NCBI GenBank assembly: GCA_015064395.1
Contig: SVSH01000004.1
Coordinates: 6,901-70,900, forward strand
Direction of reading: 5' to 3'
From: Oscillospiraceae bacterium
GTDB taxonomy: Bacteria > Bacillota > Clostridia > Oscillospirales > CAG-272
DNA length: 64,000 bases
Shown here: positions 3,515-30,807 of the stretch, in pieces
How the letters are laid out: each line of letters begins with the position of its first letter
Numbering within the stretch: the first letter of the stretch is position 1
Translations under genes and position numbers: made by a program
The notes under the pieces: model-generated
The model's input: only the letters and a program-made list of their open reading frames with translations
What the model was told of the DNA's origin: nothing
Database searches by the model: none

Positions 3515-4432
3515 TCACAGTACAAAAGTCTTGATGGATTTGAGGGCGAGCCCCTCGTCGGTCGATACGACCTCGCCCAGTGCGAAAAAGCGGCCGTCGG
3601 GGTGGTACAGGCGCACGCGCGTGCCAAGCGGAAAGCAGACCTTCAATTTGGTCAGCGCAACGGCACAGCCGTTGCCTATCAAACGGTCATAAAACGAGGG
3701 AAGGGTGAGGGAGAGAAGGTGAGAAAACAGGCTTTCGGTCGGGCGCAAAAGGAAAAGTCGCGCCTCCCGTTCCATGGCCTCCAGCTCCTCGATCGTCACG
3801 CTCTCCTCCAAGGAAAATCCACAGGCCGTGGCTCTGCACAGAGAAGCCATCGCGCCGCCACAGCCCAGCGCTTGCCCGATGTCCTCACATAGCGTGCGAA
3901 TGTAGGTGCCGCCCGAGCAGGTCACGTCCAGCGTGTAGTCGGTAGGGGTCTCGGTCGGTGTCGCCGTCAACGAGTGCACCGTCACAGGGCGGGCTTGGCG
4001 CTCGACGGTGACCCCTTGCCGTGCCAGATCGACCAGCTTGTGACCGCCGACCTTGAGGGCACTGTACATAGGGGGCATCTGCAAAATCTCGCCGCGGAAC
4101 TTGGCCAGAACGGCTTGCACATCAGCCTCACTTGGAATATGATCCGAGGTGGCCAGCACCGTGCCCGTCGTATCCTGCGTGTCGGTGGTTAACCCCAGGC
4201 GCAGTGTGGCAATATACCTCTTGTCGCCGCCGCTGAGATATTCGATCGCCTTGGCGGCGCGTCCCAAAAGGACGACCAAAACACCGGTTGCCATGGGATC
4301 CAGCGTGCCCGCATGACCAACGGCGCGGGTGCCATACAGGCGGCGTACCATACCGACGATGTCGTGCGAGGTCACGCCGGCGTGTTTATTTACGATCAAA
4401 ACGCCATCAGGGGCGAGTGTCTCTATCGACAT
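3515..4432 (-). CDS. truB: tRNA pseudouridine(55) synthase
   Basis: GHAGTLDPMATGVL, PPMYSALKVGG and CSGGTYIRTLCEDIG motifs. Confidence 0.97.
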   Translation of the reverse strand: MSIETLAPDGVLIVNKHAGVTSHDIVGMVRRLYGTRAVGHAGTLDPMATGVLVVLLGRAAKAIEYLSGGDKRYIATLRLGLTTDTQDTTGTVLATSDHIPSEADVQAVLAKFRGEILQMPPMYSALKVGGHKLVDLARQGVTVERQARPVTVHSLTATPTETPTDYTLDVTCSGGTYIRTLCEDIGQALGCGGAMASLCRATACGFSLEESVTIEELEAMEREARLFLLRPTESLFSHLLSLTLPSFYDRLIGNGCAVALTKLKVCFPLGTRVRLYHPDGRFFALGEVVSTDEGLALKSIKTFVL

Positions 4433-4453
4433 ATCGGTCTCCTTTTTTTATTT

Positions 4454-5101
4454 TCAGAAACGAACCAAAGCCGCGTGGATGGGCATGCCCTTGGCGGTGA
4501 AGTTGCTTTCGTATTCCGTCATGACATTGCCCTCGGCATAAGGGGAATTGTGCAGGTCGTCCGTCTGCCATTCGATGACCAGATTGGCCGCGGCGAACTC
4601 CTCCAGCGAGAAGGCGAACAGATCCGCATTGTCCGTCTTGAAGCGCAGGACGCCGCCGTCCTTGAGCAACAAGCGATATTGCTCCAAAAACGCGCGATAG
4701 GTCAGTCTGCGCTTGTGGTAGCCCGACTTGGGCCAGGGATCACTGAAATTTAAGTAAATGCAATCAAAGGTTTTGGGAGGGAACATCTCAGTAAGCCCGC
4801 GCGCGTCACCAATGAGGAATCGGAGGTTATCAGGACGCTCATCCTCACGCGACTTGGCCTTCTCCAAAGCGAGACAAGCCACGTCGGATACGCGCTCCAT
4901 GGCGATGAAGTTGACGTCGGGGTGCTGTGCGGCCATGCCGCAGGCAAAGGCACCCTTGCCGCAGCCGATCTCCAGGTGAAGGGGACGCTCGACAGGGAAG
5001 TATGCTCCGGGATTTTCCAGTACACTCTCGGGCAGGGGAATCAGGAGTGACGCACAGGCGGCAATTCTCTCGCTGCCGTGCTTTTTTCTGCGCATTCTCA
5101 T
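4454..5101 (-). CDS. trmB: tRNA (guanosine(46)-N7)-methyltransferase
   Basis: LEIGCGKG, LNFSDPWPK, FKTDN and MTEYE motifs. Confidence 0.97.
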   Translation of the reverse strand: MRMRRKKHGSERIAACASLLIPLPESVLENPGAYFPVERPLHLEIGCGKGAFACGMAAQHPDVNFIAMERVSDVACLALEKAKSREDERPDNLRFLIGDARGLTEMFPPKTFDCIYLNFSDPWPKSGYHKRRLTYRAFLEQYRLLLKDGGVLRFKTDNADLFAFSLEEFAAANLVIEWQTDDLHNSPYAEGNVMTEYESNFTAKGMPIHAALVRF

Positions 5102-5115
5102 GATGCGACCTCCGA

Positions 5116-6210
5116 TTATACGTTGAACAGGAACTGCACGATGTCGCCGTCCTGCATGACGTATTCCTTACCTTCGGATCGATAGCGACCGGCCTCACGA
5201 ACGGCGGCCATGCTGCCGTACTTTTCCAGATCGTCAAACGCCATGACCTCGGCGCGGATAAAGCCTCTCTCAAAATCGGAGTGGATCTTACCGGCCGCGC
5301 GGGGGGCCTTGGTGCCTCTTATGATGGTCCAGGCGCGAACCTCGTCAGGACCTGCCGTCAGGAAGGAGATCAGACCCAAAAGGGTGTAGCTTGCCTTGAT
5401 CAGACGGTCAAGACCGCTCTCGGCAATGCCCATCTCCTCCAGGAACATTGCTTTTTCTTCGGGGGGGAGCTCGGAAATTTCAGCCTCAATGCCGGCGCAA
5501 ACGGGCATCACCTGTGCGTTTTCCTCGGCGGCAAAGGCCTTGAGCTTCTGATATCCTGCGTTGTTGACGGGTTCGCTTGCGGCCTCGTCCTCGCTGACGT
5601 TGGCAACGTAGATGACGGGCTTCATGGTAAGCAGAGGGGTGTCGTTGAACCAGGCCAGATCGTCATCAGTTAGCTCTACCGTGCGGGCGCACTTGCCCTC
5701 GGCCAGGGCGTCGTATACGCGCTTGAATACCTCGATAGAGGGAGCCACGCTCTTGTCCGACTTGAGGGCCTTGTTGGCGCGCTCCATGCGGCGCTCCAGC
5801 ATCTCCATGTCCGAGAAGATGAGCTCCATGTTGATGGTCTCCAGGTCGCGCATGGGATCGATCGCGCCGTCGACGTGAAGGATGTTTTCATCCTCGAAGC
5901 AACGGACAACGTGCAGAATGGCATCGACCTCGCGGATGTGCGACAGAAATTTATTGCCCAGACCCTCGCCCTGTGCCGCACCGCGGACAAGACCTGCGAT
6001 GTCAACGAATTCGATAATAGCAGGCGTGGTCTTCTTGGGGGAGTGCATCTTGGTCAGATAGTCCAGACGTGAGTCGGGAACGGCAACAATGCCCACGTTG
6101 GGGTCAATGGTGCAAAAAGGGTAGTTTGCGCTCTCCGCGCCCGCACCCGTCAGGGCGTTGAACAGCGTGCTCTTTCCTACGTTGGGAAGGCCTACGATAC
6201 CTAATTTCAT
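5116..6210 (-). CDS. ychF: redox-regulated ATPase YchF
   Basis: [37 protein letters not shown] and [16 protein letters not shown] motifs. Confidence 0.98.
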
Positions 6211-6255
6211 ATTGTTTCTCCTATATCTTTATTGACAAATAAATTCACAACCCAT

Positions 6256-6284
6256 ATTATATATCAAATTTTTATTTTTCGCAA
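6256..6284 (-). promoter_or_regulatory. sigmaA-type promoter for the ychF operon
   Basis: TTGCGA-N17-TATAAT on the minus strand. Confidence 0.65.
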
Positions 6285-6335
6285 GGGTTAAATCCAAATT
6301 GAGAAAATTTTTCTTGTAATATTTACAAAAACTTC

Positions 6336-6364
6336 TTGGTTTTTCGCTTGAGATGTGCTATAAT
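6336..6364 (+). promoter_or_regulatory. sigmaA-type promoter (extended -10) for the TCS-htrA operon
   Basis: TTGGTT-N17-TATAAT with TGn. Confidence 0.55.
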
Positions 6365-6373
6365 AAACTGAAT

Positions 6374-6471
6374 GGGTGTCATTTTATGGAAAAACAGGCG
6401 ATGTTTCCGCAAACGTTCATGCTTCAATCACCCAACCGTCGAAGGACGGAGGTAGGATAAAATGACAGCCC
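6374..6471 (+). ncRNA. candidate structured 5' leader RNA (unassigned)
   Basis: 14-bp closing stem (6374-6387 with 6457-6471, one bulge) encloses two hairpins; lies within a ~150-nt 5' UTR. Confidence 0.35.
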
Positions 6472-6519
6472 GCGTATAGAAGATGAAAAATAAGTAAAAA
6501 TAAAACGGAGGATTGTGTC

Positions 6520-7215
6520 ATGCTGGATAAGAAGATCCTGGTCGTGGATGACGACCCCAATATCAGCGATCTGCTCAAGATCTATCTGGAGAAGGAAGGC
6601 TACGAGGTCAAGTTGGCCTCTGACGGCGTGGAGGGCGTGAACTTTTTCAAAATGTACTCGCCTGATCTGGTGCTGCTTGACATTATGCTGCCCAAGAAGG
6701 ACGGCTGGCAGGTGTGCCGCGAGATCCGCGAGATGTCCTCAAAGCCCATTATCATGATCACGGCCAAGGGCGAGGCATTCGATACGGTGCTGGGACTGGA
6801 GCTGGGCGCGGACGACTACGTCACCAAGCCCTTTGACATGAAGGTGCTGTCTGCCCGCGTGAAGGCAGTTTTGCGCCGCTCTCAGACCTATGCGGGTCAG
6901 GGTGACAGCAAGGAGACCATCAAATTTGATAACATTGAGATCAGCAAGGAGAAGTACGAGCTGAAGCTGTGCGGCAAGGCGATTGACATCCCCCCCAAGG
7001 AGCTGGAGCTGCTGTATTTCCTCGCCTCCAACTGCAACCGCGTGTTCAGCCGCGACCAGCTGCTCGATAAGGTATGGGGCTTTGACTATCTGGGCGACTC
7101 CCGCACGGTCGACGTCCACGTCAAGCGCCTGAGAGAAAAGCTGGAGGGCGTGTCGGATAAGTGGATGCTCAAGACGGTCTGGGGCGTCGGCTATAAGTTC
7201 GAGATCCTCGGCTGA
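6520..7215 (+). CDS. OmpR/PhoB family response regulator
   Basis: Receiver motifs VVDDD, LLDIMLP, ITAKG, GADDYVTKPF; winged helix with RTVDVHVKRLREK. Confidence 0.97.
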   Translation: MLDKKILVVDDDPNISDLLKIYLEKEGYEVKLASDGVEGVNFFKMYSPDLVLLDIMLPKKDGWQVCREIREMSSKPIIMITAKGEAFDTVLGLELGADDYVTKPFDMKVLSARVKAVLRRSQTYAGQGDSKETIKFDNIEISKEKYELKLCGKAIDIPPKELELLYFLASNCNRVFSRDQLLDKVWGFDYLGDSRTVDVHVKRLREKLEGVSDKWMLKTVWGVGYKFEILG

Positions 7216-8720: not shown

Positions 8721-10151
8721 ATGAATGAAAAAGAAAACGAAATCATAGATCCTTCACAAGAACAGGATGACAAGGACAACACGGTATCGACTGAGGTATC
8801 CCCGGAGAGCGAGGCGGATACGGTGACCTCGGAGACAGAGGAAGAGAGTGTTGATCCCACTCCCACTGCAGGTGAGAATGAGGGGACTGCCGATGAGCCG
8901 GAGGTCGTCTATCGCTGGAGCTACGCCGAGCAGCTCGCGGCGGACCGCTCGGAAAAAGCATCCTCTCGCCGCCGCGGCGTCGTGACTTACGCCATCGTGA
9001 TGACGGCTTGCTTCGCCGTCAGCTTTGGTATTTTGCTTGCTGCGCTATTTACCGGCTGGGACGGGCCTCTTTCCTTTGGCCCTGTGTTGGGAAATTCGAG
9101 CAATCAGAACGGCTCTGACCGCATCATCTACGTCAAGGATGATTATGAGGGAAGCGGCGTTCTGACCGAGCAGGAAATCTCCACGGCAGGCAATCCCGTC
9201 GTGGTGGGCATTACCGTAAAGACCACGCTGGGTGGTGGTGTCGGCACGGGAATTATCCTGACAGAGGACGGATATATTGCGACCAACAGTCACGTAGTAA
9301 ACGGTGCAAAAAGCATAACTGTCCGACTCTACAACGGCCAGGAGTGCACCGCGACGCTGGTCGGCGAGAGCGAGATGGACGACTTGGCTGTTATCAAGAT
9401 CCAAGCCAAGGGATTGCCTACCGCCAAGCTCGGAGACTCTTCCAAGGTTTTGGTTGGGGATCGCGTGACAGCGATCGGTCACCCGGCAGGACTGGAATTT
9501 GGTTGGACGGCGACCTACGGCCGCTTGTCCGCGGTCAACCGTATGGTCAAGATCCGTGACAATGACGGTACGATGTCCAAAAAGATGCTTTTGTTGCAAA
9601 CAGATGCCGACGTCAACTCGGGCAACTCGGGCGGGCCCTTGTTCAACGACCGCGGTGAGGTCATCGGTATCATTACCATGAAGCTGGCAGGGGACTATGA
9701 GGGGCTTGGCTTTGCCATTCCCATCTCAACCGCCGTGCCGCTTTTGAATGCGCTGATAAACAACGGAACGGTAGCTGACGTGCAGTCGCAGGTCTCCTTT
9801 GCTCGCGCAACGCTGGGTGTTACGGGCGTGTACGTGGAAAAAGAGTACTTTTACGTGCTGACCGAAACGGGAATTGCCAGACTGACCGAGGAGCAGGCGG
9901 CGCAGACCGAGGGTAGCTTCCGCCCGGGCGCAACGGGCGTGCTGGTTACGGGAACGGCGCCGGGGACGGATGCCGTCGGAAAATTTCAGCAATACGACGT
10001 GATCACAGCCATCGACGGCAAGGCCATCGATTCCTTTGATGCGATGCGCGAATATCTGTACGACCGCTTTGTGGGCGACACGGTAACCCTGACTTATGAC
10101 AGAGAAGGCCAATCGGCGCAAGCAAGCGTTGTTTTGGTGAAAACAGAATAA
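8721..10151 (+). CDS. htrA: HtrA/DegP family serine protease with PDZ domain
   Basis: Acidic N-terminus, one TM segment, catalytic triad TNSHVV / DDLAVIK / GNSGGPL, C-terminal PDZ. Confidence 0.93.
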   Translation: MNEKENEIIDPSQEQDDKDNTVSTEVSPESEADTVTSETEEESVDPTPTAGENEGTADEPEVVYRWSYAEQLAADRSEKASSRRRGVVTYAIVMTACFAVSFGILLAALFTGWDGPLSFGPVLGNSSNQNGSDRIIYVKDDYEGSGVLTEQEISTAGNPVVVGITVKTTLGGGVGTGIILTEDGYIATNSHVVNGAKSITVRLYNGQECTATLVGESEMDDLAVIKIQAKGLPTAKLGDSSKVLVGDRVTAIGHPAGLEFGWTATYGRLSAVNRMVKIRDNDGTMSKKMLLLQTDADVNSGNSGGPLFNDRGEVIGIITMKLAGDYEGLGFAIPISTAVPLLNALINNGTVADVQSQVSFARATLGVTGVYVEKEYFYVLTETGIARLTEEQAAQTEGSFRPGATGVLVTGTAPGTDAVGKFQQYDVITAIDGKAIDSFDAMREYLYDRFVGDTVTLTYDREGQSAQASVVLVKTE

Positions 10152-10165
10152 AAAAACCATACCAG

Positions 10166-10199
10166 AGAAGGCGAAAGATGCTATGATCTTTCGCCTTCT
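10166..10199. terminator. bidirectional intrinsic terminator
   Basis: 14-bp stem AGAAGGCGAAAGAT / ATCTTTCGCCTTCT between convergent genes. Confidence 0.8.
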
Positions 10200-10200
10200 T

Positions 10201-11358
10201 TTACGGCATTTCCTTGAGTGCTTGGTACAGCAGATCCACCTCGCGCGCTCGGTTGAAGGGGCCAAAGCTGACCCGCACACCGCCGCCGTCGGGCGTGTGA
10301 AGCGTGCGATGCCCGAGTGCCGCGCAGTGATACCCCGTGCGAACGCATATGCCGCGCTGTGAGAGATATTGCCCAATGTGCTCCGAGGGCACGCCCTCTC
10401 GGTGGAACATCAGGGTAGAGCCCTCGAATTCGGGTAGATACAGATGATACCCGGCAAGGGAATCCAGGCGGTCACGCAGACGGCAGAACAAAGCACTCTC
10501 GTGCTGTCTGATGTGCTCAAGCGTTACCCCCTCCAGGTATTGCAGTCCCGCACACAAGCCGGCGATGGCGGGGGTGGGAAGCGTTCCGGCCTCGCCTCGT
10601 TCGGGCAGTGTTTCGGGCATATCAGGGTCAAGCGAGGCATAGCCGCTTCCGCCCTCAATGATGGTGCCAAGGTGGAGGTCACGGTCTACGATGGCAGCGC
10701 CGCAGCCCTGAATGCCCAAAAGGCCCTTGTGTCCCGGCACGCACAGCCCGTCGATGCTCATCGCCTGCATATCAATGGGCAAATGTCCCGCCGATTGTGA
10801 GGCATCGACGATAAAATACAGATGGTGACGGCGGCAAAAGGCGCCGATCTCACATAAGGGCAGGGTAGCAGAGCATAGATTGGATTGATGGGAGCAAATG
10901 ACGGCACGGGTATTGGGCTTGATCTTGGCGGCAATACGGGCGCAAATGCGGGTGGCATTGCGCAGGCGACGTTCACCCTCCGTTTCCAGCATGGTGGAAA
11001 ACACGTCGTATTCAATGCCACCGCAGCCGGTACAACGTACCACGGGGCGCAGGACCGCGTTGTGCTCCATATCCGAGATCACAACGTGATCTCCCGGGCG
11101 TAACAGTCCCTTGATCAGAAAATTGAGAGCATAGGTGGCGTTGAGCGTGAATATGACGCCCTCGGGCGAGGGGGCGTTGAACAGACGGGCCAGGCGATGG
11201 CGACATTCAAATATTTTTTCGCCGGCCGCCAGCGCCAGAGGGTGTGACCCGCGACCGGGATTTCCGCCATATTGCCGGATACAGCGATCGACCTCCTCGT
11301 AGACTGCTGTGGGCTTGGGAAAGCTGGTGGCGGCATTGTCGAAATAAATGATACTCAT
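10201..11358 (-). CDS. class V PLP aminotransferase, cysteine desulfurase/selenocysteine lyase family (group II motif)
   Basis: IYFDNAATS, PGHKGLLG (PLP Lys) and VRTGYHCA (RxGxHCA) motifs. Confidence 0.92.
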   Translation of the reverse strand: MSIIYFDNAATSFPKPTAVYEEVDRCIRQYGGNPGRGSHPLALAAGEKIFECRHRLARLFNAPSPEGVIFTLNATYALNFLIKGLLRPGDHVVISDMEHNAVLRPVVRCTGCGGIEYDVFSTMLETEGERRLRNATRICARIAAKIKPNTRAVICSHQSNLCSATLPLCEIGAFCRRHHLYFIVDASQSAGHLPIDMQAMSIDGLCVPGHKGLLGIQGCGAAIVDRDLHLGTIIEGGSGYASLDPDMPETLPERGEAGTLPTPAIAGLCAGLQYLEGVTLEHIRQHESALFCRLRDRLDSLAGYHLYLPEFEGSTLMFHREGVPSEHIGQYLSQRGICVRTGYHCAALGHRTLHTPDGGGVRVSFGPFNRAREVDLLYQALKEMP

Positions 11359-11376
11359 AACGGTCTCTTTCTTTGG

Positions 11377-11640
11377 TTAGATGGGGTCCCAGGTGGCTTG
11401 ATCCGCATAGCGCCTGACGTTGATGTGAGCGGCTGTGAGGATGGCTTTTACGTTGGCCCTTTGTGAGGCGGCAAACAGGACGCCAAAGCCACAGCCGCGT
11501 TCCTTCTCCGAATCGGATTTGACGATCTCTGAACGAACGGCGGCCGCCGATAAAACCTCGCGGGCGTGCAAGGCGCTCGTCATTGACCCCAGAACGGCAA
11601 CCTGCATGCCGCCCGATATCGAACGATCTCGTTGTCGCAT
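11377..11640 (-). CDS. DUF3343-like small putative S/Se carrier protein
   Basis: 87 aa with SMTSAL and a GCG motif; GGAGG RBS; directly upstream of the desulfurase, the usual context for this family. Confidence 0.7.
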   Translation of the reverse strand: MRQRDRSISGGMQVAVLGSMTSALHAREVLSAAAVRSEIVKSDSEKERGCGFGVLFAASQRANVKAILTAAHINVRRYADQATWDPI

Positions 11641-11662
11641 GATAGCACCTCCTTCCTCTTTC

Positions 11663-11690
11663 AGTGTATGTCAAAGGCCGTCGTGGGGTG
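11663..11690 (-). promoter_or_regulatory. sigmaK-like (mother-cell) promoter candidate
   Basis: CACC-N16-CATACACT on the minus strand, matching the mACm-N16-CATAnnnT consensus. Confidence 0.5.
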
Positions 11691-11696
11691 TCGAAT

Positions 11697-11726
11697 AAAA
11701 AGGCGTGCGGAGGAGATCCGCACGCC
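11697..11726 (-). terminator. intrinsic terminator
   Basis: GGCGTGCGGA / TCCGCACGCC 10-bp stem followed by a U-run on the minus strand. Confidence 0.8.
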
Positions 11727-11736
11727 CAGGCTTCCG

Positions 11737-12237
11737 TTATTTATCCGTGACCACGTGGATCTCCACGTAGATCGTTCTTGTGTTGAGATTGGTGGAATAG
11801 GTGAATTTGACGTTGGTATGCTGGGACAGATTCGTGCCCAGCCGATAGCAAAAGACCAGAACTTCTTTACCCGACCGCTCGCACAGGCTGTCCATCTCAC
11901 CCGAGGGGGAGGCCAGCAGATTGACCGTCGAGCCCTCTGCCGTCATAGAGAGATTTTTCAAATCTACGGTGTATTCGGTTCCGTCGATGACGATGCGAGT
12001 GACGTCGGAGGAGACGCGCTCCACCTCATACCCGCAAGCGGCAAAGGTCGCAGCCAAGGGGATGAGCGGATATTCGCCGTGTAAATAAGCCTGTGCCTTT
12101 TCTACCGTCGTGCCGTTGACGATCAGAGTAGCCTTGCGTCGTGCGGATCGGTTGCCACCGCACATCGTCAGAGTCAATATCAAAAAGAGCGCCAGCACTG
12201 TCGTGCACAGGCGTAGGATCCATATCTTGCCTTTCAT
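11737..12237 (-). CDS. secreted or lipoprotein hypothetical with a copper-amine-oxidase-N-like (stalk) domain
   Basis: Signal peptide MKGKIWILRLCTTVLALFLILTLTMC; LIVNG...YPLIPLAATFAACGYEV pattern; GGAGG RBS. Confidence 0.55.
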   Translation of the reverse strand: MKGKIWILRLCTTVLALFLILTLTMCGGNRSARRKATLIVNGTTVEKAQAYLHGEYPLIPLAATFAACGYEVERVSSDVTRIVIDGTEYTVDLKNLSMTAEGSTVNLLASPSGEMDSLCERSGKEVLVFCYRLGTNLSQHTNVKFTYSTNLNTRTIYVEIHVVTDK

Positions 12238-12265
12238 GCCGTGACCTCCAATTTTTCTGCACAAT

Positions 12266-12294
12266 ATTATACCACACAGGGCGATTTTTGTCAA
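12266..12294 (-). promoter_or_regulatory. consensus sigmaA promoter for the stalk-domain gene
   Basis: TTGACA-N17-TATAAT on the minus strand. Confidence 0.8.
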
Positions 12295-12320
12295 CGGTGG
12301 GGAGGGCGAAAAGGAATATG

Positions 12321-12349
12321 TTGACAGAACGGGGGAAGTGTGGTAGAAT
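12321..12349 (+). promoter_or_regulatory. sigmaA promoter for radC
   Basis: TTGACA-N17-TAGAAT. Confidence 0.75.
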
Positions 12350-12381
12350 GATGACTGTATAACAGTTCAAAGGAGCGCCCT

Positions 12382-13167
12382 ATGTCAGATACAAAATCAA
12401 ACAACCCTCATCAAGGACACCGCGAGCGGATGCGCGAACGCTTTATCAAGGAGAGCGGAGAGCATTTCGAGACGCATCAACTCCTGGAGATGTATTTGTT
12501 TCCTCTCTTGCCGCGCCGCAATACCAACGAGATCGCCCATCGACTCCTTGGGCGCTTTGGCTCGCTGGAGGATATTTTCCTGGCCGATCCTTTGGAATTG
12601 ACAGAGGTGGAGGGCATCAGCGAAAAGACGGCCACTGCGATCAAGGTGACTGCCGCCCTTATGAGACGCATGGCACAGGAGAGCTATCATCCGCCCAAGA
12701 GATACGATCATTTCGAGGACGTCGTCCGCTACCTGCAAAGCCTGTATACCGGAATTACCGTTGAGCGCGTGTATCTGCTGCTGTTCGATAACGGCATGAA
12801 GCTGCTCGATTGCATCCTGCTGGACGAGGGAACGGTCAATCAAGCCAATATCACCCCGCGCAAGGTTCTTGAGCACGCCATCAAGCGAGGCGCTTCTTCC
12901 GTTTTGCTTGCCCACAACCATCCTCGCGGCGTCGCGATCCCGTCCTCGGAGGATATAGCAACGACCAATTTTCTGCAGAATAACCTCAGAGGTATGGGGG
13001 TAACTCTCATCGATCACGTCATCGTGGGACGGGATACCGTCATGCCCATTCTTAACCATCAGATCGGAAATCTGCGCCCCTCGCCCATTTCGGGAGAGGT
13101 GGATGAGAAGTTCTATCGCTCCTTCTACGGCCGATTTGACGCACGCGGATCAAGATCCGATGAATGA
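12382..13167 (+). CDS. radC: RadC family JAB/MPN domain protein
   Basis: HQGHRERMRERF N-terminus, HhH region, AHNHPRG..PSSED JAMM motif, LIDHVIVG. Confidence 0.93.
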   Translation: MSDTKSNNPHQGHRERMRERFIKESGEHFETHQLLEMYLFPLLPRRNTNEIAHRLLGRFGSLEDIFLADPLELTEVEGISEKTATAIKVTAALMRRMAQESYHPPKRYDHFEDVVRYLQSLYTGITVERVYLLLFDNGMKLLDCILLDEGTVNQANITPRKVLEHAIKRGASSVLLAHNHPRGVAIPSSEDIATTNFLQNNLRGMGVTLIDHVIVGRDTVMPILNHQIGNLRPSPISGEVDEKFYRSFYGRFDARGSRSDE

Positions 13168-13181
13168 TAAAATAACGAAAA

Positions 13182-13211
13182 AACCGCCCGGGACGTAAGT
13201 CTTGGGCGGTT
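13182..13211. terminator. bidirectional intrinsic terminator
   Basis: AACCGCCCGGGAC / GTCTTGGGCGGTT stem. Confidence 0.75.
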
Positions 13212-13218
13212 GATCTTT

Positions 13219-14988
13219 TTACGTGGGGTCGAATTGGCTGTTGTACAGGTCAGCATAGAAGCCGCCGCGAGCGAGTAGCTCCTCGTGCTTGCCTTGCTCG
13301 ATGACGTTGCCGTCCCTCATGACGAGAATGACGTCCGCGTCGCGAATGGTCGAGAGTCGGTGAGCAACGATAAAGCTGGTGCGGCCCTTCATCATGCGGG
13401 CAAACGCATCCTGAATTTTGAGCTCGGTTCGGGTGTCGATCGAGGAGGTCGCCTCGTCGAGAATGAGCATGGGAGGCAGACACAGCATGATGCGGGTGAT
13501 GCAAAGCAGCTGCTTCTGTCCTTGCGACAAACTTCCGCCGTCCTCGCCGATGACGGTGTCGTATCCGTTGGGTAATTTGCGAATAAAGCTGTGGGCGTGA
13601 GCCGCACGCGCGGCCGTCTCGATCTCCTCTTGGGTGGCGTTGGGCCTGCCCATGGTGATGTTCTCGCGGATCGTTCCTGAGCGAAGCCAGGTGTCCTGCA
13701 AGACCATGCCGTAGCTCTGACGCAGAGAGCGGCGGGGGATCTGACGAATATCCTGTCCGTCGACCGAAATACTGCCTGCCTTGACGTCGTAGAAACGCAT
13801 GAGTAGGTTGATCAGAGTTGTCTTGCCGCAACCCGTCGGACCGACGATGGCCACACGCTGGCCCGGCTTGACGTCCAGGGAAAAACCACGGATCAAGGGG
13901 CGGTCCTCGTCATAGGAGAAATGCACGTCCGCAAGGGAAACGTTGCCCTGTGTCTTGTCAATGTCCGTAGCGTCCTCAGCATCCGCAGACTCGGTGGGCT
14001 GCTCGATCAGATCGAAGATGCGGGAGGCGCAGGTCAGTGCGTTTTGCAGCTCGGTCAGAACGCCCGAGATCTCATTGAAGGGCTTGGTGTATTGGTTGGC
14101 ATAGCTGAGGAAGCAGGACAGCCGACCGACCGAAAATCCGATGGGATCAGCCATGACGGCGAAGGCGCCCGACAGCGCAACGCCGGCATATACCATCGAG
14201 TTGATAAAGCGGGTACAGGGGTTGACCAGGGAGGAAAAGAAGATCGCCTTGAGCGAGTATGTTTTGAGTCGCTCGTTGACCTTATCAAAGTCGCGCACCG
14301 CCTCGTCCTCGTGGGCAAAGGCCTTGACGACCTTTTGGTTTCCGATCATCTCCTCGATCAGTGCGGTCTGCTCGCCCCGTGTCTCGGATTGCTTTTTGAA
14401 CATGTCGTGGGTGTGGGTGGCGATATAGCGCGCCACAAACAGCGACAGAGGCGTCAGCACGACCACCAAAAGGGTGATCAAGGGATGAAGCGTCAGCATG
14501 AAGATAAGCGTGCCGAGAATGGTCAGAATGCCGGTAAACAGCTGGGTAAATCCCAGGAGTAGTCCGTCAGCAAACTGATCCACGTCGGCGATGACACGGC
14601 TGACGATATCGCCCACCGGCTGCTTGTCAAGATAGGAAAGGGGCAAGCGCTGGATGCGGCGGAAGGCGGCGTTTCTCGTGTCGTGAACGACGCGGAAGGC
14701 GATCTTGTTGTTGAGCGTGCTCATCAGCCATTGCGACAGAGCGATCACGAGCGCGCACACGGCGACACGCACAAGAAGGGGAATGATGACAGGGAAGTTG
14801 ACGTTGCCCTTTGCGATGATATGATCGATGGCGTCGCCAATGACGATGGGGATATATAGCGTAAGTCCGACCGAGAGTGCGGCCAGAAGTGCTGACAGAA
14901 TGATCTGCAGGCGGTAGCGCTTCAGATAACGAAGAACGGTCGCAAGTGTTTTGCGGGTCTGTCCGGAGGAGAGCTTTTGGTTTGCCAT
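13219..14988 (-). CDS. ABC exporter, fused permease/ATPase (heterodimer subunit with consensus catalytic Glu/His)
   Basis: TMD plus NBD with GPTGCGKT, LSQGQKQ, ILDEATSS and AHR; start MANQK after a GGAG RBS. Confidence 0.95.
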   Translation of the reverse strand: MANQKLSSGQTRKTLATVLRYLKRYRLQIILSALLAALSVGLTLYIPIVIGDAIDHIIAKGNVNFPVIIPLLVRVAVCALVIALSQWLMSTLNNKIAFRVVHDTRNAAFRRIQRLPLSYLDKQPVGDIVSRVIADVDQFADGLLLGFTQLFTGILTILGTLIFMLTLHPLITLLVVVLTPLSLFVARYIATHTHDMFKKQSETRGEQTALIEEMIGNQKVVKAFAHEDEAVRDFDKVNERLKTYSLKAIFFSSLVNPCTRFINSMVYAGVALSGAFAVMADPIGFSVGRLSCFLSYANQYTKPFNEISGVLTELQNALTCASRIFDLIEQPTESADAEDATDIDKTQGNVSLADVHFSYDEDRPLIRGFSLDVKPGQRVAIVGPTGCGKTTLINLLMRFYDVKAGSISVDGQDIRQIPRRSLRQSYGMVLQDTWLRSGTIRENITMGRPNATQEEIETAARAAHAHSFIRKLPNGYDTVIGEDGGSLSQGQKQLLCITRIMLCLPPMLILDEATSSIDTRTELKIQDAFARMMKGRTSFIVAHRLSTIRDADVILVMRDGNVIEQGKHEELLARGGFYADLYNSQFDPT

Positions 14989-26860: not shown

Positions 26861-26872
26861 CAAAAAAATGAA

Positions 26873-26900
26873 GGGCGGATGCACCTCGGTGCATCCGCCC
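26873..26900. terminator. bidirectional intrinsic terminator
   Basis: Perfect 12-bp stem GGGCGGATGCAC / GTGCATCCGCCC with A- and T-runs. Confidence 0.85.
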
Positions 26901-26918
26901 GTTTTTTGTTTTGGTGAA

Positions 26919-29900
26919 TTATTTTTCTTCTTTGGTGTATTCCATGACAAATCTAGAGATGCAACCGCCGAATCCCTTGGAGGGATAGCAATTACGGATA
27001 CGAACGTAGAACACGCCGCCCTCCTTTGCACCGTAGGTGAAGGGATCGAGGGTAAAGGTCGTGTCGTTTCCGCCGCCGGGCAGGTGAGGCACCTTGCCGC
27101 CCTCGGAGTAGTCGGCGACCATGGTATAATTCTCGCCGTCCGTGCTCACCTCCAGAATATAGTTCTGCGCCAAATAGAAGGTAAATTTGGCACTGAGCAT
27201 ATCACTGAGGTCAAAGGCGTAGATCAGAATACCGCCATTGTCGCAGAAGCGAACGCCGCTGTTGACGCCTGCGCTGCTGAAATCAAGGAATTCGTAGTCT
27301 TCGTTGCTGCTGTTGGTACGAACGGTTCGCTGATACGAGGCGATGCCGTTCTTGACGGAGACCAGAAAATCGCTCTCATTGGTGCTGTTGTCGTCACGTT
27401 CGGGGATGAACTCGGTGGTCGTGTTGTTCTTACCGGGTGCCCGATTGGGCTTTACGGCAGTGGTGGTCGTGTGGCGAATGACGATACGGGAAACAGCAGC
27501 GCCGTGGCTGCCGATCGTTGCCGTGTTACGGATACGGATGTACAGGTCGTTGCCGATCTCTTCGTATGCCGTGGGATCGATCGTGATGACGGTGGCGTTG
27601 TCTGCGTTTGTCACACGGTCGACCGTTCCGCCCTTGGAATAGTCGGCTATCAGCGTCCAATTCTGACCGTCTCCGGAAACCTCAATGATATAGTTTTGTG
27701 CGATGTAGACCTGATATACAGGGGAGTCATAGTCACGCGTGTCAAACTTGTAGATCAACTCGCGGTTGTCGTCGCAAAAGCGGACAGATGCACTGACCCC
27801 GGCGGTATTCTTGACGAGGTATTTTTCGTCAGCCCCCGACTCGTTGGTCAGAATATTGACCTCGCCAAGGCCTCCTGTGATGTCCTTGATGGCATTCTTG
27901 TCGTCGCCCCACTTGATGGTGACGGTGATGGGCTCCATGCCACCGTCAAACAGGAAGAAGATGGAATTGCTTGCCTCATCATAATCGTATTGGAGCAGGG
28001 AAAGATCCAGCTCGTCCTCGCCCTTGGTGATGCTGATGCTCTTGGGATATACACCGGCGGGGAGCAGGATGCGGTTGGAAAGCAGCGTGTTGCCGGCACT
28101 GGTGACGGTGTAGGTCATGCTATCCGCCGTTTCGACCAAAGAGCCGCTCTGGATCGTGCCGGCGGTGAAGCCCAAGCGGGGAACGGAGAGGTCAAAGCCG
28201 GAGACGTCATACAAAACGACGCTGTCGTCCTTGGGAACGACGGGATTTTTGAGAATACTCAGCTGTGCGCTGTAGAGGTTGATGTAAGTACCCTTCAGCG
28301 TTTGCGCGGAATGGTAAGCGTGAGCCGCTACGACGTTGCCGCGGCGAACGGTCATCAGATCGGTGGTGACGTAATCATAGTCGGTGTAGTTCAGCGCGTA
28401 TTCGGTCAGGGCGCGCATCATTTCAGGACCGAAGGAATGGCCGCCGAAGAAGGCGGAGGAAAGACCGATGGCGATGACGCGGCCGTCCTCGACTCGCTCG
28501 TCGATGCCGACAGCCTTTCCGCTGACTGTCAAAATGGGATTGCTTGCGCCCTCAAAGGTGATGGCAAATCTGCGATAAGAGGCAGAAAGTCTCTGATCGT
28601 TAAAGGCACTCTTCAGCGTGGGATCGCTTGCCGAGATGCTGTTGCCGCCGGCAAGAGAGGAGACCTTGATATCATCAAGCTCCAGATGCTTGAAGAGGTT
28701 GTTCAGGGGAGAGCCGTCCTCTTGCCAGAAGAAGTAATCATCAACGCTCCAGTACTGATTGGAGCCGGAAATGAACAAGAGAGTACCGCCCGCCTTGACC
28801 CAATCGGCAATGGCGATATTGATCTTTTCATTCAGCGGCACGTTGGAATCAAAGCTGACGATGAGAACGGTAACGCCCTCCAGGTCAGCGGCGGATTCGA
28901 TCTGATCCATCGACTTCATCTTAGTGGGGATACCCTCGCGGACGAGAGAAGCAGTGACACCGTACAGGCCGTCGGTGGTGCCCAGCGCCCAGCCCGAGCC
29001 CGGATTCATCCAGGACAAGGAGTCGGAGATCAGATAGGTGATACCGGGTGTGCCGGCCTCGATCTTGACGTCCTCACCGCCGACATTGTTGAGCATCTCG
29101 TAGATCTGGGACTGAATGGTGCGGTAGTTGTTGGATACGTTAGCAAAGGCGCGGTTGACCCAGGGAAGGATCTGGAAACGATTGATCTCGGGCTGCATCA
29201 GGATTGCCGCGATGGACTGACGGTAAAGATACTGGCAGTCCTCCTCGGTGAAGCTGGCGTTGTCCATCATCGGGTCGGCAAGGGCGTAAAAGTTCAGTCC
29301 TTCGACCGAATCAACGTAAGAGGAATACTCGATAAAGGCATTGGTAAAGTTATCGGTAAAGGCACCGCCGCGATAGAGAAAAGCGGTATTTTGGGTATCC
29401 GACCAGGTCTGCCCGATGACACCGTCAAGCGCCCCTGTGGCGACGTAATGGTTCAGTCCTGCATCAATGCCCCAGTCGGAGTAGTTGACCGTGCTGTGAG
29501 TGGCAATATAGACCTGAGTGGTGGGGGAGAGCTCCTTGATGCGGGAGGAGAGCTCTACGATGATACGCTCAAACAGATAGGTCTTGAGCAGATTTGCCTT
29601 GAGCATATTCTCGGGAGAGGAGGCGGGATCCTGCCATTCCTCACCGTAGTAGGCCTTCCATTCTGCCTTGAAGGACTTGGAGTAGCCGGAGGCCGCCCAC
29701 ATTTCGGGCTCCTCCAGAGCGATGGTCTGGGGGTGGCAGGCAATAATAACGGGCTTGACCCTGTTTTCCCATACGTAATCGATCCAGCGCTCTGTGGGCA
29801 CCATATAGTAGTCGGTGCCTGCGCTATGCTCCAGGAAGCTGCCTGAGCTGTTGGTCTGAACGTCATCCTGACGCTTATACTGAGAGACGTAGGTTTTGCT

Positions 29901-30719
29901 GGCACGGTTGATGGCGAGCATCATATCCACGACGTAAGTGCCGGGCTCATACCAATCGGCAAAATGCTTGTAGTCGTTGGCGTAGACCATAACGGAATCC
30001 GAGTTGACGGCGTACAGATCCGAGAACATCGTTCCTGTCTGGAAGGTGGTCATAACACCCTCCAGCTTCATACCCTGATACTCCTGAACGTACATACCGC
30101 CCGAGAGGGTGTAGGTGGGCTTTGGGTAGGAGAGGGGGGTGGTAGTGGGCTTGTTTTGCTCGGGGAAGATGGGCAGATCGGGGTCAAAGGGATTGACCAC
30201 AGGTGGGGTATAAGAATTTTTCATAGAAAAGTTAGCAGCCATAGCGAATGCTCCCGTCGTTGCATTGGTTTCCAGTATGTTGGTAACGAAATAATCCACC
30301 GCCTCCACGGTCGCGGCGTCATCGTAGCCGATGATGACGAGTCGCTTGTTCATAATAGCGATGACGTATTCGTTTTCGGACAGCTGTGCGTGTGCCTCGA
30401 TGCTCTCGGCGCGGTTGGTCATGCCGACTAAGATCTCCAGCGTATCGGTGGGAACGGGCTCACCGCGCTTGACGTAGTCTTCGTTGATAGGCATATCCTT
30501 AAGTCCTGTTTTTTCTTTCAGGACAGCGCAGACACGGACGGCCGCCTTGCGAATGTCTACGTTGGCCGTCTCCGAGCGGACGACCGTGTAGGAGGTCGCA
30601 CCGTTGGCGATCAGATGCAGCATTTCCACCGGGGGCTCTTTGGGCTTACAAGCCACGATGCTGCCGCCGATCAGTGCCAAAAGGGCAACGCATACCAGAA
30701 TGCGAAGTGTTTTTTTCAT
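26919..30719 (-). CDS. large multidomain lipoprotein, putative uncharacterised glycoside hydrolase
   Basis: Lipobox IVAC after MKK plus a hydrophobic core; GH20-domain-2-like N-terminus; central LEEPE-containing domain; class I GATase-like domain; two ~130-aa C-terminal repeats; AGGAG RBS. Confidence 0.6.
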   Translation of the reverse strand: MKKTLRILVCVALLALIGGSIVACKPKEPPVEMLHLIANGATSYTVVRSETANVDIRKAAVRVCAVLKEKTGLKDMPINEDYVKRGEPVPTDTLEILVGMTNRAESIEAHAQLSENEYVIAIMNKRLVIIGYDDAATVEAVDYFVTNILETNATTGAFAMAANFSMKNSYTPPVVNPFDPDLPIFPEQNKPTTTPLSYPKPTYTLSGGMYVQEYQGMKLEGVMTTFQTGTMFSDLYAVNSDSVMVYANDYKHFADWYEPGTYVVDMMLAINRASKTYVSQYKRQDDVQTNSSGSFLEHSAGTDYYMVPTERWIDYVWENRVKPVIIACHPQTIALEEPEMWAASGYSKSFKAEWKAYYGEEWQDPASSPENMLKANLLKTYLFERIIVELSSRIKELSPTTQVYIATHSTVNYSDWGIDAGLNHYVATGALDGVIGQTWSDTQNTAFLYRGGAFTDNFTNAFIEYSSYVDSVEGLNFYALADPMMDNASFTEEDCQYLYRQSIAAILMQPEINRFQILPWVNRAFANVSNNYRTIQSQIYEMLNNVGGEDVKIEAGTPGITYLISDSLSWMNPGSGWALGTTDGLYGVTASLVREGIPTKMKSMDQIESAADLEGVTVLIVSFDSNVPLNEKINIAIADWVKAGGTLLFISGSNQYWSVDDYFFWQEDGSPLNNLFKHLELDDIKVSSLAGGNSISASDPTLKSAFNDQRLSASYRRFAITFEGASNPILTVSGKAVGIDERVEDGRVIAIGLSSAFFGGHSFGPEMMRALTEYALNYTDYDYVTTDLMTVRRGNVVAAHAYHSAQTLKGTYINLYSAQLSILKNPVVPKDDSVVLYDVSGFDLSVPRLGFTAGTIQSGSLVETADSMTYTVTSAGNTLLSNRILLPAGVYPKSISITKGEDELDLSLLQYDYDEASNSIFFLFDGGMEPITVTIKWGDDKNAIKDITGGLGEVNILTNESGADEKYLVKNTAGVSASVRFCDDNRELIYKFDTRDYDSPVYQVYIAQNYIIEVSGDGQNWTLIADYSKGGTVDRVTNADNATVITIDPTAYEEIGNDLYIRIRNTATIGSHGAAVSRIVIRHTTTTAVKPNRAPGKNNTTTEFIPERDDNSTNESDFLVSVKNGIASYQRTVRTNSSNEDYEFLDFSSAGVNSGVRFCDNGGILIYAFDLSDMLSAKFTFYLAQNYILEVSTDGENYTMVADYSEGGKVPHLPGGGNDTTFTLDPFTYGAKEGGVFYVRIRNCYPSKGFGGCISRFVMEYTKEEK
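26937..27860 (-). repeat. two tandem ~130-aa protein repeats (27471-27860 and 26937-27329)
   Basis: Both share AGV.S.VRFCD....LIY.FD, Y.AQNYI.EVS.DG.N.T..ADYS.GG and DP..Y...Y.RIRN.......G..SR. Confidence 0.9.
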
Positions 30720-30778
30720 AATAACGTCTCCTTGTCGTAGGACTTGCGGCAAAACAGCCGCAGGCTTTCATAGTACAT

Positions 30779-30807
30779 ATTATACAAATTTTGTCATTCA
30801 AAGTCAA
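30779..30807 (-). promoter_or_regulatory. sigmaA promoter for the lipoprotein
   Basis: TTGACT-N17-TATAAT on the minus strand. Confidence 0.75.

Follow-up and report, generated by a model that had tools for sequence, protein, structure and literature searches.

The window analysed here is a stretch of 64,000 nucleotides from contig SVSH01000004.1 of an Oscillospiraceae bacterium (assembly GCA_015064395.1). Its minus strand encodes, between positions 26919 and 30719, a predicted lipoprotein of 1266 amino acids (aa). Based on structure models, residue conservation and the genes associated with its relatives, this protein is best read as a membrane-anchored, outward-facing glycoside hydrolase (GH) of a large, unclassified GH42-like family, acting on mannose-rich glycans and feeding exo-mannosidases; the probability of this reading is put at about one half. 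The protein is probably a real glycosidase of this family, for which we infer catalysis. A mannose-rich glycan is a plausible substrate, proposed because the family core is repeatedly fused to, or found beside, alpha-mannosidases. An extracellular location is probable for the protein itself from its lipobox, and for some of its homologues from their dockerin, SLH or CBM9 modules.

Domain architecture and structural relatives

Seven segments were delimited between the signal peptide and the C-terminus:

30210-30629, minus strand: N-terminal alpha/beta accessory domain with the N-domain fold of GH115/GH67/GH20, residues ~31-170 (model with a predicted local distance difference test score (pLDDT) of 85.6; Foldseek E 5e-6)
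30075-30209, minus strand: Pro/Thr-rich linker, residues ~171-215 (sequence; low pLDDT)
29079-30074, minus strand: (beta/alpha)8 barrel, putative catalytic domain, residues ~216-547 (model pLDDT 94.7; structure alignments)
28365-29078, minus strand: class I GATase-like domain (GH42 'trimerisation'-type, DUF4350-like), residues ~548-785 (profile hit to 6jow, E 1.4e-5; hhalign probability 95%)
27870-28364, minus strand: beta-sandwich domains (GH42 domain-C-like and one more), residues ~786-950 (model; aligned with GH42 up to model residue ~816)
27450-27857, minus strand: first discoidin-like repeat (F5/8 type C, CBM32-like), residues ~955-1090 (Pfam 23.6 bits; homologue scores)
26922-27323, minus strand: second discoidin-like repeat (F5/8 type C, CBM32-like), residues ~1133-1266 (repeat comparison; PDB profile hits)

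Residues 25-960 were modelled with AlphaFold2 from an alignment of 109 sequences (mean pLDDT 94.7, predicted template modelling score 0.86); residues 25-200, which include the N-terminal domain, were modelled separately (pLDDT 85.6). Barrel, GATase-like domain and beta-sandwich follow one another in the model as they do in GH42 enzymes. The barrel proposed in an earlier reading of the sequence alone (the original prediction) is supported at fold level by this model and by Foldseek and VIA-align (VIA) matches, and its class I GATase-like domain, likened there to that of GH42, by Foldseek, VIA and hhalign. The 'new architecture' proposed at the same time gave way to a known one: the model indicates a core with the GH42 layout, to which the Clostridial branch adds a lipoprotein signal, an N-domain of the GH115/GH67/GH20 type and two discoidin-like repeats. 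The range first assigned to the protein, 27861-30719, covers only residues 1-953 and stops short of both repeats at the C-terminus (26922-27857).

Searched against the PDB with Foldseek, the model of residues 25-960 matched the GH35 exo-beta-glucosaminidases GlmA best (E 2e-21), followed by GH42 beta-galactosidases, the GH164 beta-mannosidase and a GH35 beta-1,2-glucosyltransferase (IaSGT), the top matches having E values from 2e-21 to 1e-15. The Thermus GH42 structure 1kwg was aligned with the model by VIA at Z 22.4 with a root-mean-square deviation of 3.7 over 540 residues. When the barrel alone was compared, the best matches were the GH153 C-terminal domain of PgaB (4P7L; Z 22.3, 298 residues) and Cwp19 (5OQ2; Z 21.6, 279 residues), which tie with many TIM-barrel hydrolases (Z 19-22).

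Sequence comparison did not reach the barrel. GlmA sequences were the only PDB entries found by the family profile (6jow, E 1.4e-5), and hhalign against a GH42 alignment gave a probability of 95% in local and 97% in global mode; in both cases the signal came from the GATase-like and C-terminal domains, not from the barrel. Pfam recorded only sub-threshold F5/8 type C and DUF4350 matches in the window protein, with no GH42 or GH35 match at E up to 1, searches of NCBIfam and of PDB sequences with the protein were empty, and a six-frame search of the source genome with PF02449 (GH42) gave no match, the window gene included. DUF4350 was found in 25 of the 36 family members examined. The barrel itself is claimed by no Pfam, NCBIfam or PDB-sequence family.

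The structural relatives differ from the window protein in several ways. The GH42 beta-galactosidases (Thermus A4 1KWG, Rahnella 5E9A, Bifidobacterium 4UZS) have the same barrel, 'trimerisation' domain and beta-sandwich, but are only ~10% identical to it; the window protein is predicted to be lipid-anchored and carries extra N-terminal and discoidin-like modules, and its family is partnered by mannosidases. The GH164 beta-mannosidase Bs164 (6T5O, 6T7G) is built on the same GH42-type plan (Foldseek E 8e-17; VIA Z 20.4, 555 residues) and acts on a mannose sugar, yet it has the canonical Glu/Glu machinery of clan GH-A, is 11-12% identical and belongs to no shared sequence family. PgaB and Cwp19 resemble the window protein in that their groove is rich in acidic residues but has no classical Glu pair; they lack a GATase-like domain and are 7-12% identical; PgaB has His-Asp after strand 4 (PMC5933820).

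The N-terminal domain had originally been likened to those of GH20 and GH67, which holds at fold level. Its model was closest to GH115 (VIA Z 13.4-12.4, the former over 129 residues to 4zmh) and GH67 (Z 11.2), followed by GH20 and GH84 (Z 9-12), and it also matched the N-terminal domain of GH138. Here, unlike in GH115, GH67 and GH20 enzymes, the domain precedes a GH42-like core, and within the family only the Clostridial branch has it. At the other end of the protein, the two discoidin-like repeats are 44% identical to each other. A repeat of the window protein scored 23.6 bits against PF00754 (gathering cut-off 28.2), while the counterpart repeats of two homologues (P0022 and P0093) passed the F5/8 type C threshold with 41.9 and 41.5 bits, and weak PDB profile hits were obtained to neuropilin b1. 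Leads from the ESM Atlas, at the level of chance, were CBM32 (0.87) and GH112, GH_cat and GHL6 (0.86-0.91).

Candidate catalytic residues

Two short motifs at the ends of barrel strands form the candidate catalytic signature:

29703-29714, minus strand: Glu336-Glu337-Pro338-Glu339, directly after barrel strand 4, Glu337 being the candidate general acid/base (conservation; model)
29262-29276, minus strand: Asp482-Pro-x-x-Asp486, directly after barrel strand 7, Asp482 being the candidate nucleophile or base (conservation; model)

In an alignment of 98 family members from many phyla, Glu336, Glu337, Pro338, Glu339 (as Glu or Asp), His408, Asp486 and Arg523 are each kept in 97; Trp439 and Trp520 occur in all 98, and Gln437 and Asp482 in 96. 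Strand 4 of the model comprises residues 332-336 and strand 7 residues 476-481, so that Glu337 and Asp482 are placed at the positions which define the 4/7 superfamily (clan GH-A). In a global hhalign alignment with GH42, of low confidence, Glu337 falls on the GH42 Glu. The residues themselves are not those of the clan or of GH42. The Asn-Glu pair after strand 4 is replaced by Glu336-Glu337 (97/98) and the Glu nucleophile after strand 7 by Asp482 (96/98), and no invariant Glu was present in the strand-7 region among the aligned members. All motifs quoted in the original prediction were found, with the EEPE exactly at 29703-29714, as was its Pro/Thr linker; the paired catalytic Glu residues for which it called are absent in the usual sense, since the strand-7 position holds an invariant Asp.

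In the proposed mechanism the barrel would cleave glycosidic bonds with Glu337 as general acid/base and Asp482 as nucleophile or base. The -1 site would be formed by Glu336, Glu339, Asp486, His408, Arg523, Gln437, Trp439 and Trp520, and residues of this site may coordinate a divalent metal or recognise the substrate at its C2 substituent.

A GH99-like neighbouring-group mechanism was considered and set aside. Glu336 and Glu339 form a Glu-x-x-Glu resembling the catalytic pair E333 and E336 of GH99 (PMC6055899), but the two motifs occupy different parts of the barrel, that of GH99 (NEWHE) coming late, and a weak hhalign test, in which a single GH99 sequence served as template for the family barrel, gave a probability of 0.4%.

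The main rival explanation, although unlikely, is a hexosamine-directed enzyme. Glu336-Glu337 would then act like the Asp-Glu of GlmA, which receives a C2 ammonium group, or like the Asp-Glu of GH20, which supports substrate-assisted catalysis on a 2-acetamido sugar with no enzyme nucleophile; in the GH20-like version the protein would be an endo-beta-N-acetylglucosaminidase (ENGase) releasing high-mannose N-glycans. In GlmA the Asn-Glu pair is replaced by Asp178-Glu179, with Asp178 as the residue that binds glucosamine at its C2 ammonium (PMC6566704), so that in both GlmA and the window family a carboxylate, and not Asn, precedes the acid/base Glu. The lack of a Glu at the nucleophile position, the rank of GlmA among the whole-chain Foldseek matches, that of the PgaB domain, a hydrolase of deacetylated poly-N-acetylglucosamine, among the barrel-only matches, and an N-domain fold common to GH20 and GH84 all point the same way, as does a source genome rich in alpha-mannosidases in which no GH18 or GH85 ENGase was found. 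Fold matches that tie with many other TIM-barrel GHs do not show function, however, and the N-domain is closest to GH115 and GH67 glucuronidases. GlmA is a cytoplasmic, archaeal enzyme whose barrel has no sequence similarity to the window family; it keeps a Glu nucleophile (Glu347), and its first carboxylate is Asp rather than Glu. The window protein has no Pfam GH35 barrel match and carries Asp at the nucleophile position. Genes for NagA, NagB and deacetylases do not recur beside members in the neighbour tallies, and the Paenibacillus members lack a signal peptide, which would suit an ENGase badly.

Two further alternatives were ranked lower. A divergent beta-galactosidase of the GH42/GH35 type, or an alpha-L-arabinopyranosidase, acting on plant or host galactans would share the three-domain layout, and the discoidin/CBM32-like repeats (often binders of galactose-type sugars) and the dockerin and CBM9 modules of relatives would suit it. 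It is nevertheless highly improbable: the Pfam searches for GH42 and GH35 were empty, the Asn-Glu and strand-7 Glu motifs are replaced throughout the alignment, and the family is fused to mannosidases, not to galactan enzymes. A non-hydrolase is also quite improbable. It could be a surface protein that binds glycans or serves as a scaffold, built on a GH42-like frame which has lost its activity, or it could work as a phosphorylase, like GH112, or as a transglycosylase, like the GH35 beta-1,2-glucosyltransferase, in line with the missing canonical Glu nucleophile, the transferase IaSGT among the fold matches, GH112 phosphorylase barrels among the language-model neighbours (score 0.91) and an invariant Arg523 and His408 that could bind phosphate. 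The ESM Atlas scores are at a chance-prone level, though, and phosphorolysis is not known outside the cell, which is where many members are placed by a lipoprotein signal, dockerin or SLH module. Five acidic residues, a His and an Arg kept in 96-98 of the 98 members across phyla argue for chemistry, not for binding alone.

Family distribution, fusion partners and the case for mannose-rich glycans

The protein had been described as an orphan, which the searches contradict. The 119 homologues obtained by a word-indexed search range in identity from 94% down to 28%, and most come from assemblies of animal-gut Clostridia (sheep, goat, deer, horse, yak); at least 588 loci with the family core (residues ~224-937, ~720 aa) were found in a scan of species-representative genomes. 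The core stands alone in Paenibacillus, Cohnella, Alicyclobacillus, Armatimonadota, Verrucomicrobiota, Planctomycetota, Bacteroidota and Bifidobacteriaceae. A search from the Paenibacillus lycopersici member reached at least 7151 clusters at 90% identity, named only 'hypothetical', 'beta-galactosidase trimerisation domain-containing' or 'DUF4350', and none with a precomputed Pfam domain; with the barrel alone as query, 401 clusters at 50% identity were obtained. In the genus of the window organism the family was present in all 12 other species genomes (1-6 matches each), and beyond it in one further genus and not in 27 other genera sampled. A second member in the source genome, likewise a predicted lipoprotein, has 1006 aa and 35% identity to the window protein.

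Literature searched on DUF4350, GxGYxYP and new GH families held no description of this family. Its barrel, signature and activity are new to the libraries and literature searched, its fold and layout are known, and it is unclassified as judged by Pfam, NCBIfam and PDB sequences. A 1272-aa open reading frame (ORF) in a relative of the source genome (L095), above the Pfam GH42 cut-off, was rejected as an ortholog, as it is unrelated to the window protein. Several other ORFs of 900-1330 aa in such relatives show weak similarity to part of the Pfam GH42 model (positions ~100-300); they too are unrelated to the window protein and may represent another unclassified GH-A-like family.

The substrate proposed for the family comes from its fusion partners and neighbours. 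A search for longer relatives revealed proteins in which the core sits behind other modules: GH92 in four clusters (P0247-50, of which P0249 comprises 1304 member sequences), GH43 with GH76 (P0242), GH38 in one protein (P0243) and GtaA-like modules in four clusters (P0245, P0246, P0251 and P0252). EEPE(F)W and DPIED are intact in all of these fusions but P0252, where no EEPE shows. P0242, a secreted protein of 1400 aa from a metagenome assembly, is composed of GH43 (28-321), GH76 (380-611) and the family core (717-1393).

In Paenibacillus operons a member adjoins genes for a GH38 alpha-mannosidase and a sugar ABC transporter, together with a GxGYxYP or GtaA-like protein. Among 74 loci, GH38 was a neighbour in three (L023, L062, L072), GxGYxYP in four (L030, L062, L065, L075) and a GtaA-like protein in three. 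A jackhmmer search with GxGYxYP queries had given 32 apparent loci, which were mostly family members recovered through shared accessory domains; the true neighbours number 4 of 74. One GtaA-like neighbour ('glutaminase A' six-hairpin, DUF4964/DUF5127) is encoded at 12233-14281 on the plus strand of L072. GtaA-like proteins are both neighbours and fusion partners, which suggests that they and the family act on the same glycan. GxGYxYP proteins have been tied to alpha-mannan loci, GH92 and GH38 (PMC4071793).

The paralogue of the source genome lies ~2.5 kb from a GxGYxYP gene (4380-6977, plus strand of locus L104, contig C48). The product of this gene and the window protein have a signal peptide and the GH115/GH20-type N-terminal module in common (E 7e-13; 29% identity, 188 aligned positions). 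The module appears to have been exchanged between two putative glycosidase families.

In the source genome (1.89 Mb, 90% complete) six GH38, one GH92 and four GxGYxYP matches were recorded, and no GH18, GH20, GH76, GH85, GH125 or GH130 was found; as judged from these matches, its repertoire is rich in mannosidases and has no known endo-acting partners. Each of the 14 family-positive relatives (14/14) had 4-11 GH38 matches, and most family-negative ones had 0-2. Under the mannose-rich reading the substrate would be fungal or yeast alpha-mannan or a high-mannose N-glycan, the polymer would be held at the cell surface by the discoidin-like repeats, and the fragments released would be finished by the GH38 and GH92 alpha-mannosidases of the genome. 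More tentatively, the family may be a new GH family whose GH42-like scaffold carries a non-canonical catalytic apparatus, with Glu-Glu-Pro-Glu behind strand 4, Asp-Pro-x-x-Asp behind strand 7 and perhaps the help of a metal, and may carry out an unassigned step of mannose-rich glycan breakdown. In bacteria such as the source organism, for which no GH76, GH99, GH125, GH18 or GH85 was found, it would fill a gap at the cell surface by opening the polymer to GH38 and GH92 exo-mannosidases.

Several observations weigh against the reading as a glycosidase of mannose-rich glycans. Use of an Asp after strand 7 is not known from any clan GH-A family. Carbohydrate-related neighbours are absent from around the window gene, its close Clostridial relatives lie mostly among housekeeping genes, and the window protein is only 25-30% identical to members that are fused or linked to mannosidases. 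The co-occurrence with GH38 is confounded by kinship (two genera), and two family-negative genomes are themselves GH38-rich, with 6 and 9 matches (G034 and G036). Pfam tallies of 121 and 122 flanking genes showed no dominant partner; GH127 neighbours family members in four loci, and one Bacteroidota locus has GH172-type (DUF2961) and GH183-type (DUF4185) genes. The substrate may differ between branches, because the neighbours are mixed across the wider family.

The Bacteroidota locus, from a metagenome-assembled genome (L047, 98-21630), holds three SusC/SusD pairs, a family member, a BT_3987-like/discoidin surface protein, DUF4185 and DUF2961. The last two we take to be D-arabinan-type enzymes, GH183 and GH172, respectively. 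Such a gene set points tentatively to another or a wider substrate, for example actinobacterial arabinomannan.

The gene and the meaning of the family

The gene lies in an ORF on the minus strand (26919-30752), with its ATG at 30719 and its stop codon at 26919-26921. The following elements were located:

26919-30719, minus strand: whole coding sequence, 1266 aa and stop codon (ORF list, translation, homologue comparison)
30648-30719, minus strand: signal peptide with lipobox, residues 1-24, Cys24 being the predicted lipidated residue (translation; Cys nearly invariant in homologues)
30727-30733, minus strand: ribosome-binding site AAGGAGA, 7 nt ahead of the ATG (sequence)
30779-30807, minus strand: sigma-70-like promoter TTGACT-17-TATAAT (11/12 consensus matches)
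26873-26900, bidirectional: intrinsic terminator with a 12-bp stem, common to the gene and the convergent sufD (terminator scan)

The N-terminus reads MKKTLRILVCVALLALIGGSIVAC, and the signal peptide ends in GGSIVAC at Cys24, its lipobox IVAC agreeing with the bacterial lipoprotein pattern [LVI][ASTVI][GAS]C. With ORF, promoter, ribosome-binding site, lipobox and terminator in place, the lipoprotein gene of the original prediction is a real one. It is flanked on one side by dnaX, recR, sufC and sufD, and on the other by ruvC, a methyltransferase gene and genes for ECF-type ATPases. Its own promoter, its terminator and these flanks therefore mark it as a monocistronic gene among housekeeping genes, as had been proposed.

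Antisense to the gene runs a plus-strand ORF of 992 aa (26868-29846), whose Gly/Asp/Val/Ala-rich product had no Pfam or family match and which is treated as an antisense shadow. Both family members of the genome have such very long stop-free antisense frames, of 992 codons for the window gene and 1041 for the 1006-aa paralogue (9444-12569, plus strand of L104), each almost coextensive with the real gene.

The use of alpha-mannan and N-glycans by gut bacteria is known mainly from Bacteroides enzymes (GH76, GH92, GH99, GH125 and GH18). The family described here comprises thousands of unnamed proteins, from gut Clostridia to soil Paenibacillus, Verrucomicrobia and Armatimonadota, with fusions to GH92, GH76 and GH38, and the window protein is a new member and a new branch of it. 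If active, the family would add to the CAZy classification and would show that a GH42-like barrel works with Asp at the strand-7 position, and many annotations as 'hypothetical' or 'beta-galactosidase trimerisation domain' could be corrected. It might also explain how mannosidase-rich Firmicutes without known endo-enzymes attack mannose-rich glycans.

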